From Candidatus Hermodarchaeota archaeon (GTDB lineage: Archaea > Asgardarchaeota > Hermodarchaeia > Hermodarchaeales > Hermodarchaeaceae): 64,000 nt of DNA. A program made the translations under genes and the position numbers. The stretch is taken from NCBI GenBank assembly GCA_016839805.1, contig JAEOTO010000031.1, positions 64,001 to 128,000 on the forward strand, in the 5' to 3' direction. The stretch's first letter is position 1; each line of letters opens with the position of its first letter. Under the pieces are notes generated by a model. The model was not told the origin of the DNA. It did no database searches and worked only from the letters and a program-made list of their open reading frames with translations. Positions 13,971 through 22,104 of the stretch are shown piece after piece.

Positions 13971-15731
13971 ATGCTGAACCTGGTTGAACTTACTCCACTA
14001 GAATTGGGTTTGAAGAAGTTGATGGTTGACTTCTTCGTTGATAAACCTCAATACACCGCGGGTCTCGAACAGTTCACATCTGCTCATTACGCATTAATGA
14101 CCGCGCTTTCTCAGAATTTCAAGATTCCCATGGAAGACACTACTCAAGTGTTTGACAGTCTAGCTACAAAGATCCGCAGTGCTGAATATATGAAAGTTGA
14201 ATGTCCTGACACAAGTAGAAGGAATAGCTGCTTATCGCGTAAGGAACTTGACATGCTGAACATTATGATTGAGTATTTCGGTGAGGAGTCCTTCGCGGAA
14301 TCGAGCTTTCTTTCCGATCGAAGGGAAGCATTAGTTGATCATTATCACTGGATTAACGGTGGTGATATTGAAGAAGCATGGAGTTGCTGTAACGATTTAA
14401 TTGAAAAAATCGAAACCTCAACCGCTATAAAAATTGAAACGCTCAATTCAGTCACCCCAAAGCCTAACCCTTACGAAGCTGCGCTTCAACAACTGGATCT
14501 CGCTGCCGAAAAACTGGGTTTGGACCCGGCCACCCACGAAATTCTTCGTCATCCGCAACGCATTCTCATTGTCACTGTACCTGTTCACATGGATGATGGT
14601 AGTGTCCGTGTGTTTACGGGATATCGATCACAGTACAATGATGCCTTAGGTCCTACTAAAGGCGGAATTCGCTATCATCCCGAAGTAACTTTAGATGAGG
14701 TTATTGCCTTATCAGCTTGGATGACGTTTAAAACCGCAGTCGTGGGTCTGCCTTTGGGTGGCGGTAAAGGCGGGATACGGTGTAATCCCAAAGAGATGTC
14801 TATTGGTGAATTGGAGCGTTTAACACGTGGATATACACGAGAATTAGTTCGATTCATTGGTCCCCAAACCGATATTCCTGCACCTGATGTGTATACCGAT
14901 TCACAGACGATGACTTGGATTATGGATGAATACGCGGAATGCACTGGAGTATACTGTCCAGGTGTCGTTACAGGAAAACCGGTAGGAATTGGTGGTTCAC
15001 AAGGCCGTAATGACGCCACATCACGCGGTCTTGTTTATACTATCATTGATGCCTTAGAACAACTCGGTATTGCTCTAAAAGATACACGTGTCGTAGTTCA
15101 AGGCTTTGGAAATGTTGGTTTCCATGCCGCTCGAATCCTTTCTGAACTTGGTAGTAAAATCATTGCAGTTTCAGATTCAAAGGGTGGCATCTACAACCCG
15201 GAAGGATTGGATCCAGTAAAAGTCAAGGAACACAAAAACCAGACACGCTCAGTTATCCAATATCCTGGTGCTCATCCTCTCAGTAACCACGATCTTCTTG
15301 AACTCGATTGTGAGATTCTTATTCCAGCAGCATTGGAGAATGTAATTACTGAAGAAAACGCCCCACGGATTAAAGCGAAAATAATTGCCGAAGGCGCCAA
15401 TGGCCCGACGACTCCTAAAGCAGATGAAATCATCCATCAAAAAGGAATCTTTCTCATTCCTGACATCCTTGCTAATGCTGGTGGCGTTACGGTGAGTTAT
15501 TTTGAAATGGTCCAAAATCAAATGAACTACTTCTGGACCGTTGAAGAGGTTCATAGCAAACTCGAGAAAATCATGCAAACTGCTTTTCGTGACGTCTTTG
15601 CGATATCCAAAGAACAGGATGTACCAATGAGGATTGCTGCGTACATGCTTGCTGTTAGTCGTATAGGTTATGCCTTTAGAACAAGGAAGCGCTCACTAAT
15701 TATAGACCGAAACACCAGTCCTAACAAATAG
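13971..15731 (+). CDS. gdhA: Glutamate dehydrogenase with a ~165-aa N-terminal extension
   Basis: GPTKGGIRYHP, GGGKGG, DIPAPD, QGFGNVG, EGANGP, PDILANAGGV; GGTGA SD before the upstream ATG. Confidence 0.93.
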   Translation: MLNLVELTPLELGLKKLMVDFFVDKPQYTAGLEQFTSAHYALMTALSQNFKIPMEDTTQVFDSLATKIRSAEYMKVECPDTSRRNSCLSRKELDMLNIMIEYFGEESFAESSFLSDRREALVDHYHWINGGDIEEAWSCCNDLIEKIETSTAIKIETLNSVTPKPNPYEAALQQLDLAAEKLGLDPATHEILRHPQRILIVTVPVHMDDGSVRVFTGYRSQYNDALGPTKGGIRYHPEVTLDEVIALSAWMTFKTAVVGLPLGGGKGGIRCNPKEMSIGELERLTRGYTRELVRFIGPQTDIPAPDVYTDSQTMTWIMDEYAECTGVYCPGVVTGKPVGIGGSQGRNDATSRGLVYTIIDALEQLGIALKDTRVVVQGFGNVGFHAARILSELGSKIIAVSDSKGGIYNPEGLDPVKVKEHKNQTRSVIQYPGAHPLSNHDLLELDCEILIPAALENVITEENAPRIKAKIIAEGANGPTTPKADEIIHQKGIFLIPDILANAGGVTVSYFEMVQNQMNYFWTVEEVHSKLEKIMQTAFRDVFAISKEQDVPMRIAAYMLAVSRIGYAFRTRKRSLIIDRNTSPNK

Positions 15732-15854: not shown

Positions 15855-17795
15855 ATGCCTGTTCATATACACACCACCATCCCCGAAAAATCAGCAGAAA
15901 TTTTGAATCAACTAACAGGTACTTATGGAACGAAAAGCCGAGTTCTAGAGAAAGCATTAGAAACCATGACACGCGTTGAGAAGGTCGGCTCCTGTGATGA
16001 TTGTACGTTTAAGGCGCAAATAGAAGAGCGGATGAAATTACGTGAGGCTTTGGAATTAACTTCGATCCGAAAAGATTTGCTTGATGAGCTCCTTAGGGTT
16101 GCTCTTTCAGATCTCACAATGAGTGAATTTATTCAATGGCAAAGAAACGATGCCCAAAACACTATTGAACTCATTCAGAGCTCGATACAGTGGAAGCCAC
16201 CAACTGAATTTCGGGATTTCCTTTCGTTAATTGACCAAATAAGTGAAATTACCCGGCTATTTGATGTCGCTTCACACCGTGAAATGGACAAAACCATCGT
16301 ACTTAGGCCAATCGTATTTCTAAGAATGCCTGAACTGGTAGCATTTCAATTAGCGATCATTCTTGAAGGGATTGGTGTTTACTTCGATCTACGCATAATG
16401 CGAAAAGAAATAATCTTGAAAATGCTTCGAAAGGAGTTAGCAAGTGTCCGAAGAAGTAATCCATTACAATTCATTTCTGAGCGGATGGATGATAAATTCG
16501 GGTCACTTAAACCCCAATTATTCAAGGATCAATTAGTGCTTGTTGGTCCTGCCTTTCTGAAATGGGCCGCTCAAAGCCTCGAGGAATCAATTGCCGATTT
16601 AGGATCTGTAATCGAAGATATTCGGTTGTCCATCAAACCTGCTGAATTCTCGGATAATCCTAAGGAATTCATTGATGGATTAATGCGCGCCGGACGGAAT
16701 ATGAATTGGATAACCCAGGTAAATACCACTCAAGAGTCTGAGAACAACTTTCGTATTAACTTTCAGGCAACATCACCTTCCATGGCGAATATCGCTACAG
16801 TCACCTTTGCGTTAATTCTCGCAACGAAAGGATGGAAGCTCATCCGCTATTCCACCGAGTATGATAATGGGAATATTGTTGTTGAATTCGTTGGGGAAGG
16901 AAGTCAAGAGGTCTTAGACCAGTTAATCGAAATGAACCTGTTTCGAGTCGTTAATCAACAATTTCTTGATTCTATACCGGTTCCCCGAGAACTTTTTGAT
17001 ACATTTGCTATTAAGGTTTACGATAGTGATCGCCGGCGTTTTGAAGAAATCTATCGTAATATTGGCTTTCGCATCGCAAATGCAATTAGAATGTTAGCAA
17101 AGAACGATGAAGAAAAGATTGGACGGCTTATTCGAAGCTACATTGAAAAAAATGTTCATGAAGCACAATCAAATGCTGAACTTCGATTTGTCGATGATGA
17201 AACCTTTTCGGTAGTATTCAGGCAAATGGAGCCAATAACAATAACTAGTCAACAAATAGTAATCAAATCAATGTTGGAGGCACTCGGTTACGAAGTCTCG
17301 GTAACAACATTTCAAAACCTCCTAAACGTGAAAATGAAAAAGGTTGGCAAGCCCCTTCTAGGTCCTCTCCATCGTAGTGAAGTTGTTCAGATGGTGAGTG
17401 ATGCAATTGCTGCTGATTCATTAAAAGATGCGTTGAATCAAGTTAAACCAACATTGGATAAACTGTTTCCTGTTGAATATCCTTGGACGATTCACGAGAT
17501 TGGAGATCGCCTCCTTGACATGTATCGTGAGTTGGGGATTCAAGTTGAAATTGAATACTTTGAAGGAGGATTCACACTCAAATACCGAACGTGCCCCTAT
17601 TACAAACTCGTCGCTAATAATCAAAAAACCTGGCTCTGTAAATTCCGTAAGAAAGCTATTGAATACATCCTATCCCGAGTTACACGTACTGGCAAAGGAA
17701 GAATCAAGGTAATCAAATCGCTCATAGAGGACGGAACACATCCCTGTGAGTATGCAGTTTTTCTTGAAGAATTCTTAGCGAAGTCTCCGGGTTAG
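15855..17795 (+). CDS. Putative transcriptional regulator: RHH-like N-terminus, CxxC, repeated alpha/beta modules, C-terminal V4R-like Cys domain
   Basis: VHIHTTIP-helix-GTKSRVLEKAL; CDDC; C-terminal TCPY...LC...SL..G..PCEY. Confidence 0.55.
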   Translation: MPVHIHTTIPEKSAEILNQLTGTYGTKSRVLEKALETMTRVEKVGSCDDCTFKAQIEERMKLREALELTSIRKDLLDELLRVALSDLTMSEFIQWQRNDAQNTIELIQSSIQWKPPTEFRDFLSLIDQISEITRLFDVASHREMDKTIVLRPIVFLRMPELVAFQLAIILEGIGVYFDLRIMRKEIILKMLRKELASVRRSNPLQFISERMDDKFGSLKPQLFKDQLVLVGPAFLKWAAQSLEESIADLGSVIEDIRLSIKPAEFSDNPKEFIDGLMRAGRNMNWITQVNTTQESENNFRINFQATSPSMANIATVTFALILATKGWKLIRYSTEYDNGNIVVEFVGEGSQEVLDQLIEMNLFRVVNQQFLDSIPVPRELFDTFAIKVYDSDRRRFEEIYRNIGFRIANAIRMLAKNDEEKIGRLIRSYIEKNVHEAQSNAELRFVDDETFSVVFRQMEPITITSQQIVIKSMLEALGYEVSVTTFQNLLNVKMKKVGKPLLGPLHRSEVVQMVSDAIAADSLKDALNQVKPTLDKLFPVEYPWTIHEIGDRLLDMYRELGIQVEIEYFEGGFTLKYRTCPYYKLVANNQKTWLCKFRKKAIEYILSRVTRTGKGRIKVIKSLIEDGTHPCEYAVFLEEFLAKSPG

Positions 17796-20717: not shown

Positions 20718-20760
20718 AGTTTTATTAATGTGAAGACATGTCCAAAGATGTGTGTTAGTA

Positions 20761-21297
20761 ATGTCTAACCTCTGGCGTGATTTACCACCTGGTCCTGACC
20801 CACCCAATCGAATCTACACGATCGTAGAAGTACCTAATGGTGTAAGTAACAAATATGAATATGACATCAAACTTGGAATCTTTCGTCTGGACAGGGTACT
20901 TTATTCTGCACTCTATTTTCCTGGTGATTATGGAATTATCCCCCAAACATGGTATGAGGATAACGATCCTCTTGATATTATGGTGTTGACCACCAAACCC
21001 ACTTTCACTGGCTGCATTCTGGAAGCTCGACCAATTGGTATCTTAACGATGGAAGATGAGAAAGGCGAAGACGATAAGGTAATTGCGGTACCCATCAATG
21101 ACCCCCGGTGGGATGAGGTGAGAAACTGCTCGGATATGGCACATCACCTTCGCGCAGAGATCGCCGATTTTTTTCTGAAATATAAGAGTCTTGAACCGGG
21201 ACGATGGGTTAAGGTAAAGGAATGGCAGGATTCACCTACAGCGATGAAAATCATCGAAAAAGCTATCAAAATGTTCAAAGAACAGTTCAAGAAGTAG
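20761..21297 (+). CDS. ppa: Family I inorganic pyrophosphatase
   Basis: KYEYD, LDR, P.DYG.IPQT, D.DPLD, M.DEKG.DDK. Confidence 0.95.
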   Translation: MSNLWRDLPPGPDPPNRIYTIVEVPNGVSNKYEYDIKLGIFRLDRVLYSALYFPGDYGIIPQTWYEDNDPLDIMVLTTKPTFTGCILEARPIGILTMEDEKGEDDKVIAVPINDPRWDEVRNCSDMAHHLRAEIADFFLKYKSLEPGRWVKVKEWQDSPTAMKIIEKAIKMFKEQFKK

Positions 21298-21329
21298 CTG
21301 GATCAGATTCCGCTGGTTTCGTACGCTGA

Positions 21330-21490
21330 AGAGTGAATAATCCCATCGTGAACTACCCCGCCCTGACGGACGGAGCTTCCTGCTTCATCCCATCGGCTTG
21401 TGCCGACTGGTCCACAGGCTCTACTCGCCGTTCCGGCGATGTTGCCCGGTCATGGGGTCTTGGTTCTCGGCCACCTGCCGGGACCTCAAC
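21330..21490 (-). ncRNA. Putative TnpB omegaRNA/reRNA scaffold plus flanking guide
   Basis: TTTAAATA box at 21516-21509; stems GTCGGC/GCCGAT, TCGCCG/CGGCGA and the RE hairpin; GCCTGTGGA segment resembling tnpB 3' ends; boundaries approximate. Confidence 0.6.
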
Positions 21491-21564
21491 TAGGACCTCT
21501 TGAAATCCTATTTAAACACCTCGATTCATTCCCGGTCTGAAAGGGCCGGGGTCTTCTCGAGGTT
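21348..21564 (-). mobile_element. Non-autonomous IS200/IS605-family element (no transposase or TnpB ORF) with an omegaRNA-like right end
   Basis: Minus strand ends GAAGCAGGAAGCTCCGTCCGTCAGGGCGGGGTAGTTCAC (RE hairpin + TCAC); LE hairpin CCCGG..CCGGG inside a CCTCGA/TCGAGG stem; removing it restores an in-frame host gene end. Confidence 0.8.
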
Positions 21565-22104
21565 ATAGATAAGAGGTAACAGTCGGGGAACTAAAAACGG
21601 TGTCGTGCGTTTGTATTCAAGATATTCTTCACCAAACCGTGCTTCTAACTGTGGTTCCTCGTACTTCTTGATTCGGATAACCATGATAACCAGAATAATC
21701 AAGGGAACAAGAATTGCCATTCCAAGCGATCGAAAGAGAAGCCCCATCCCAAGGGGAAGAAGCGTGTATCCTAGAGTGATAGGATTACGAATATGGGAGT
21801 AGATTCCAGTAGTAACGAGCAGAGTTGATTGAGCTTGTTTATCAAATGCACCCCAGGGGAGCCCCTTTCCAACTCTACGTAAATGGCGTGTTGCCTTAAT
21901 TCCGACTGCCGCTCCAGATGACATTATACTAGCGCCGATTATGAGGTTGTATGGAAAGGGAGGAAAAGGAGGAAGGAGAAAGATAGAATCCATCCATACA
22001 CCAGCTAGAATAGTGATAATCGGTACAAATAGGAATATGAGAAGATATGGTCCGATGTAACGCAATCGAATGGTTGGGAGAGAGGATGAATTTCTAGGTG
22101 GCAT
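21526..22104 (-). CDS. Isoprenylcysteine carboxyl methyltransferase (ICMT/PEMT) family membrane protein
   Basis: LVTTGIYS.IRNP, EE..L..RFGEEY..YK..TP; the last 12 codons and the stop come from the IS element. Confidence 0.85.
   Translation of the reverse strand: MPPRNSSSLPTIRLRYIGPYLLIFLFVPIITILAGVWMDSIFLLPPFPPFPYNLIIGASIMSSGAAVGIKATRHLRRVGKGLPWGAFDKQAQSTLLVTTGIYSHIRNPITLGYTLLPLGMGLLFRSLGMAILVPLIILVIMVIRIKKYEEPQLEARFGEEYLEYKRTTPFLVPRLLPLIYNLEKTPALSDRE

Follow-up and report, generated by a model that had tools for sequence, protein, structure and literature searches.

What could an insertion element that encodes no protein still be doing at the 3' end of a methyltransferase gene in an Asgard archaeon? 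We addressed this question for a locus within a window of 64,000 nucleotides, the whole stretch of DNA that was analysed, from a Hermodarchaeum genome (G000). Our main reading, to which we assign a probability of about 0.7, is that the locus holds a mobile stand-alone guide-RNA gene assembled from three parts of a tnpB element of the IS1341 type. Judged from sequence comparison, these pieces would be the left end with its promoter, a hairpin from within the tnpB ORF, and the omegaRNA core with the right end. A first-pass annotation of the same DNA had described a protein-less IS200/IS605 derivative with a promoter and a predicted TnpB omegaRNA scaffold, and this description is supported by the ends, the TATA box, the fold and homology to a tnpB 3' end.

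The element is an IS200/IS605 (IS1341-type) mini-element of 221 bp on the minus strand (21348..21568), delimited by its siblings, a parent tnpB element and an empty allele. It contains neither a transposase nor a nuclease gene, confirming the reported absence of tnpA and tnpB, and its ends are common to a larger tnpB element. The hairpins at both ends are subterminal (minus strand; left, 21531..21551, as already seen; right, 21355..21376, followed by TAGTTCAC), and terminal inverted repeats are absent. In the nearest relative (G013, flanks ~90% identical) the locus lacks the element and ...CTCTTAT is joined straight to the right flank; the element length that best fits this allele is 221 bp. 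The empty site that had been thought reconstructable is thus a real allele. Of the 217-bp element first placed at 21564-21348, the right end (GTAGTTCAC at 21348) stands, while the left end was 4 nt off: siblings, tnpB parent and G013 all put the start at 21568.

Both the empty-site alignments and motif frequencies identify TTAT as the TAM and insertion motif (21569..21572, minus strand, outside the element). The left boundary directly follows TTAT in 7/7 empty-site alignments to G013, which cover six mini copies and the parent tnpB element (the seven tested with both flanks), and the lack of a target duplication held at all seven sites. TTAT precedes the left-end box in 22/29 copies against a background of 5.6%, and BLAST and profile searches of the source genome showed that nearly all sibling copies start after it. 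CTAT, the TAM assumed earlier, was wrong; siblings, parent and empty allele all give TTAT.

The interrupted host gene (21526..22104, minus strand) had been called ICMT-like. It belongs by score to the PEMT family (PF04191, 43 bits), and ICMT fell below its cut-off. The insertion swapped the gene's last 20 codons for 14 element-derived codons and left the domain (54-159) intact; the new stop codon (21528-21526) lies just past the left-end hairpin. The orphaned original 3' tail (21287..21347, minus strand, MMGLF...DPATS frame) overlaps the end of the convergent neighbour ppa, encoding inorganic pyrophosphatase (20752..21297, plus strand). Removal of the 221 bp yields a 198-aa protein ending LPLMMGLFTLQRTKPAESDPATS, in agreement with G013 (LPLILGLFARQREKIGENDPATS) and a further relative, G011 (LPLLMGLF...); the empty gene ends ...LPLMMGLF...DPATS, as in both of them. 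The restored in-frame ending LIY-DGIIHSSAYETSGI proposed before was an artefact of the 4-nt boundary error, and the native ends in G013 and G011 also differ from the one that would have spoken against an insertion. Elsewhere in the window we noticed, by eye, a glutamate dehydrogenase-like ORF with an N-terminal extension of ~170 residues (13971-15731), followed by an unannotated 646-aa ORF (15855-17795).

BLAST and profile searches recovered ten full-size copies from the source genome (79-85% identity where they align), together with four ~46-bp fusions of left and right end and a complete tnpB element on contig C41, all sharing their ends; the related ends and the TnpB on which the first reading depended are therefore both present. 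High-scoring copies occur only in the genus Hermodarchaeum; more weakly related scaffolds are spread more widely through the phylum (39 of 121 genomes). The insertion locus is empty in every relative examined. Copies common to related species diverge as their flanks do, hence the ten dissimilar copies represent old lineages; lateral homing of shared-site copies is unsupported, element and flanks being equally diverged. The ten copies in the source genome reflect either recent hops or precise excision in G013.

Three further features of the insertion sites were recorded. Across the seven filled/empty pairs of G000 and G013, an average of 10.6 positions differ within the 50 bp of the guide side, compared with 6.6 on the left side and ~4 in the wider flanks, an excess that could be due to gene-end variability, relaxed selection or repair scars. 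Insertions at C44:8816, C26:79802 and C41:9285 in G000 sit on the stop codons of opposite-strand genes, which is expected because reversed TTAT contains TAA. The copies L019 and L116 have the same left flank and element and different right flanks, so the guide seems to have been exchanged through rearrangement between copies.

We then considered the promoter and the RNA. The archaeal TATA box seen in the first pass (TTTAAATA, 21509..21516, minus strand) is homologous to TTCAAATA, which both parent tnpB genes have 30 nt ahead of their ATG, and the RNA should therefore start where the tnpB mRNA would. From the start of the TATA box to the conserved RNA block there are 29-30 nt in 32/37 copies (29 in the studied copy, counted by hand), and the columns of the intervening spacer (21488..21508, minus strand) are just ~30-60% conserved, so that its length is fixed and its sequence free. 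The predicted transcript begins at G21487 with a conserved scaffold of 140 nt (21348..21487, minus strand). Its multi-stem character, reported earlier, is borne out by a fold z of -3.2 (0/200 shuffles). In an alignment of 35 copies, 92.5% of the cells are paired in the named structure and pairing beats 500/500 shuffles and every slid control; 21 pairs show compensatory changes, a count inflated by the relatedness of the copies. Homology to the tnpB 3' end covers the 3' 94 nt (the parent 3' end scores 88 bits with our model R1), which form the omegaRNA core (21348..21441, minus strand), made up of a GGAAC stem, a RAGATH-18-like stem and a pseudoknot, UGAA(21387-21384):UUCA(21352-21349), which is 99% paired and so nearly invariant that it shows no covariation. 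Hence, promoter spacing and RNA fold are under selection.

Known RNA families matched the scaffold in part. With RAGATH-18 (RF03064) and HgcC (RF00062) it has the CCUGUGGA...GAUGAAGCAGGAA core or the stem of the right end in common, at scores far below their gathering thresholds (26.5 vs 44.9 bits and 14.4 vs 50 bits, respectively), and no Rfam family spans the 5' hairpin described below. An HDV-like ribozyme, prompted by GGUCCCAG...CUGGGCAACA, was rejected: the covarying helices are serial hairpins with no nested double pseudoknot, and the candidate for the catalytic C in J4/2 is paired within a stem. A sigma-70 promoter scan was set aside as inapplicable to archaea.

According to established TnpB biology (PMC11043419), the predicted guide is the right flank (21328..21347, minus strand), as the first-pass annotation had stated. 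For 16 guides we found no convincing second TTAT-adjacent target in the genome, leaving the empty allele as the only evident one. A TnpB encoded elsewhere had been postulated, and the intact cognate gene is present in the same genome: the C41 element (1291 bp) carries tnpB only, with the same ends and the same TAM as the mini-elements. Its product has an intact D-E-D, passes NF040570 and is related to ISDra2 TnpB (E 6e-68); a second parent-family tnpB, on contig C22, carries the right end only. By its residues, then, the genome appears to encode a catalytically intact, compatible TnpB. Of the autonomous element sought, tnpB was found and a cognate tnpA was not: PF01797, NF033573 and tblastn returned no cognate Y1 TnpA in G000 and 17 relatives, and with family genomes 72-91% complete (G000, 87%) this does not prove its absence. 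PF01797 had a match in 1/19 family genomes (G013), on an element without these ends. An IS607 or Cas1-linked TnpB element was not adopted, since neither partner was found in these incomplete genomes (serine recombinase PF00239, 0/15 genus genomes; Cas1 PF01867, none in G000).

The scaffold begins with a 5' hairpin (21445..21482, minus strand), whose origin the first-pass annotation missed. Its outer helix covaries at 6/7 pairs, and its 9-nt loop, GAGAACCAA (21460..21468, minus strand), is exact in 25/35 copies and open and pair-closed in 30/35 predicted folds; the studied copy has a C-A mismatch in the upper stem and folds differently as a single sequence. The 46-bp forms lack the helix, which is thus not needed for movement. 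The loop is identical to the tnpB codons E-N-Q before the RuvC-II glutamate. It occurs once in the parent tnpB, within LSTRLIRENQAIIVESL, four codons before that glutamate and ~400 nt upstream of the right end. The 5' hairpin therefore appears to derive from inside the tnpB reading frame. A parent tnpB with the hairpin at its 3' end was not seen among 11 metagenome and 11 genome pattern matches (0 in both), and base pairing between the loop and the right end (GAAC:GUUC) was rejected because it spans only 3-4 bp and is not kept in other families.

Is this stretch constrained within tnpB itself? The E-N-Q codons are GAG AAC CAA in 13/13 parent-family genes (proteins 58-80% identical to the C41 protein), with all three synonymous sites fixed, although each of these codons is used only about half the time elsewhere. 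Among two-fold sites at invariant residues upstream of the omegaRNA, 9/74 are fixed, and three of the nine are those of E-N-Q. The ORF stretch folds as a two-part hairpin with third-position compensatory changes at 6 pairs, a result reached by 0/500 shuffles. When the genes were divided on a fixed 20-codon grid, this window folded best relative to synonymous shuffles in the parent family (z -2.2), and likewise in 25 other Asgard genes (z -1.6) and 59 viral genes (z -0.9). Seven of eight plasmid-borne tnpB genes, those of E. coli, Clostridium, Trichormus, Enterococcus, Bifidobacterium, Bacillus and Methanosarcina, gave z -1.3 to -3.1, compared with +0.5 for Klebsiella. Six have a 9-nt loop; that of E. 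coli, Clostridium, Trichormus and Bifidobacterium is the same, and Bacillus and Enterococcus have a variant of it. In a second Asgard TnpB family, for which equivocal HMM scores led us not to adopt the label IS607, the same loop is encoded in a different frame (A-K-T-K) and sits on stems of 6-9 bp. The motif RANARCCAM stands just before the glutamate codon in 56/92 dereplicated, diverse tnpB genes and does so in two reading frames; given identical amino acids and codon usage, 12.5 would be expected, with the caveat that the motif was defined after the data had been seen and that related genes are non-independent. A literature search, mostly open-access, found no paper on a tnpB ORF hairpin. 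The comparisons thus point to a hairpin in tnpB mRNA, before the RuvC-II glutamate, that is conserved across many bacteria and archaea and undescribed in the literature found.

Other mini-elements start in a similar way. Two viral contigs from IMG/VR (L118:5680-5916 and L119) carry near-identical protein-less elements at two different TTTAT sites, which indicates recent movement of such elements in viruses; both have a TATA box and AT-rich stems topped by a GAUAACCAA loop, and their core resembles the one in Methanosarcinales-type tnpB. Similar mini-elements in two other Asgard genomes also start with the same loop, borne by unrelated AT-rich stems. The cores are each similar to a different lineage of tnpB, which suggests a repeated origin of loop-headed mini-elements. 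The promoter-bearing mini-elements L156, L157, L103 and L105, a separate family in another Asgard group (genomes G066, G058 and G027), have another conserved 5' loop (~UGAGGUAAC), for which we found no match in their own tnpB genes, and the old fixed copies L058, L096 and L053 have lost the loop.

The 15 Hermodarchaeum genomes contain many tnpB-only elements of several families and almost no TnpA of either kind. One tnpB (L178, G000:C22:21756-23000, with L061, L066, L067 and L078) occupies a fixed site in at least five species. It follows a tRNA-like/tmRNA-like sequence, lacks a left-end hairpin and has a conserved guide, GAAGYGTTTAATCGAAAC, partly repeated downstream. At L178 the tRNA-like sequence lies ~280-420 bp upstream of tnpB and seemingly contains an intron; ARAGORN and Rfam made no call. 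At this fixed site in G002 and G005 the ORF is deleted, the TATA box and omegaRNA remain, and the E-N-Q hairpin is gone.

In IS200/IS605 elements, as established in PMC10055086, TnpA excises the element and inserts it after the TAM, and TnpB with a right-flank guide cuts the scarless empty site, so that the element is retained. On this model, a Y1 TnpA acting in trans would move the mini-element by peel-and-paste, and RNA transcribed from ~21487 would load TnpB made from the parent gene. The loaded TnpB would cut TTAT plus the right flank, that is, the empty allele, and repair from the filled chromosome copy would restore the element. The element would thus supply the guide and borrow both proteins. 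More tentatively, the 5' hairpin could serve as a signal in the tnpB mRNA, read by TnpB itself when it captures or processes the omegaRNA, and the stand-alone RNA would have kept it to compete for TnpB in trans. Two points make us favour recognition by TnpB: the loop sequence persists in different reading frames and in families whose ends are unrelated, and a stand-alone RNA has to draw in TnpB made from another mRNA. A damping or inhibitory role of the hairpin is a close alternative. It is conceivable, with a similar degree of doubt, that typical tnpB mRNAs carry a conserved hairpin that TnpB recognises to load, process or regulate its guide, and that stand-alone omegaRNAs in several lineages fused this hairpin to the scaffold to give a two-module trans guide.

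How well do other explanations account for these observations? The RNA might be a decoy or brake whose 5' hairpin sequesters TnpB or TnpA, or keeps the scaffold inactive, and so damps cleavage or excision. PATE RNAs have been proposed as TnpA competitors (PMC4615843), and an AmaTnpB mRNA fragment (nt 751-875) by RuvC-II that inhibits cleavage has a like motif, GAAAGCCAA (PMC10278001). That fragment also needs nt 826-875, however, and when we folded the inhibitory stretch it did not form the same hairpin; we therefore rejected an identity of the two, the match being partial (GAAAGCCAA shared, fold different), and treat the fragment as a lead only for a brake role. With a full guide scaffold, its pseudoknot and a precise right end retained in all copies, we consider a decoy or brake unlikely. 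Quite improbable, in our judgement, is a passive deletion remnant (PATE) with no working guide RNA, in which conservation would result from descent and from recognition of the ends by TnpA. Several copies in relatives are indeed decaying, but the 46-bp forms move without the interior, and yet the interior is the best-conserved part of the element and shows compensatory changes. The TATA spacing is likewise fixed although the spacer drifts, and two separate deletions retained precisely the ORF hairpin and the omegaRNA core.

We give little credence to the internal hairpin acting as ssDNA in transposition, or as a mere 5' stabilising stem, unrelated to recognition by TnpB. The G-U/G-T pairs implicate the top strand only, which is also the strand of TnpA, so that they do not separate RNA from DNA. 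Against both roles, the hairpin directly follows the inferred start site and the 46-bp forms do without it. Conservation also extends beyond the stem to the loop sequence, which recurs in different reading frames and in TnpB families whose ends are unrelated. Hardly credible is a set of guides domesticated by the host against other genes or viruses. Ten different guides exist and related species share some copies by inheritance at fixed sites, but the guides are the host flanks seen in empty alleles, no good second TTAT-adjacent target was found in the genome, and the studied site is empty in all relatives examined.

On the preferred reading of a stand-alone guide-RNA gene, the mini-element is a natural deletion experiment: from ~1,100 tnpB bases, the guide core and one internal hairpin were kept. 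This pattern suggests that the coding part of a very abundant prokaryotic gene conceals an RNA signal, and it bears on the ways in which TnpB locates, processes and restrains its guide and in which stand-alone guides compete for TnpB in trans. The hairpin makes these questions testable in any model TnpB that has it, E. coli elements included. It could also matter for the design of TnpB editors; if the proposed role is true, codon-optimised editors would have lost it.

By the features tested, the element appears to be a PATE-like IS200/IS605 element encoding a predicted stand-alone TnpB omegaRNA, which is a published kind. Stand-alone omegaRNAs were reportedly shown by Altae-Tran and colleagues in 2021 mainly for IscB. 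The possible archaeal OMEGA system of the first-pass annotation was right as to kind and overstated the novelty of the general idea (PMC10055086, PMC10691335, PMC4615843). In the parts of Meers et al. drawn on (PMC10055086), PATE-like elements of Geobacillus stearothermophilus often encode omegaRNAs, with TnpB acting in trans, and are alike in being protein-less members of the IS605 family with both ends and clade-specific TAMs. Our element differs in its Asgard host, in the selection on promoter spacing and fold across 35 copies, and in carrying a tnpB-ORF hairpin in its RNA, which those parts do not mention for Geobacillus. The stand-alone omegaRNAs of OMEGA systems, as outlined in the part of PMC10691335 that summarises Altae-Tran 2021, are also mobilised guide-RNA genes without effector or transposase that work in trans; that part states their role as unknown and describes no mRNA-derived leader. 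The PATE-derived RNA VNG_R0052 and the sotRNAs of Halobacterium salinarum offer an archaeal parallel, an IS1341-derived fusion of left and right end that is transcribed, but a classical BRE-TATA was not seen ahead of the sotRNAs and the link to guiding was not known then (PMC4615843). ISDra2 has a related TnpB whose omegaRNA shares the 3' pseudoknot and terminal stem (8H1J/8EXA; PMC10097598). It differs in its TTGAT TAM, its scaffold and a 5' region dispensable for cleavage (PMC10097598), and the solved RNA has no RuvC-II-codon hairpin (8H1J/8EXA). The inhibitory AmaTnpB mRNA (Nety et al., PMC10278001) is similar as an RNA feature by the RuvC-II codon that affects TnpB activity; that inhibition was mapped mainly to nt 825-875, past the glutamate codon, and explained by omegaRNA pairing, and the study left conservation of the region aside. 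Hence, taken by itself the mini-element adds a clean Asgard case to a known kind and owes its interest almost wholly to the hairpin: what appears to be new is that the 5' hairpin of a stand-alone RNA is a copy of a hairpin in the tnpB coding sequence.
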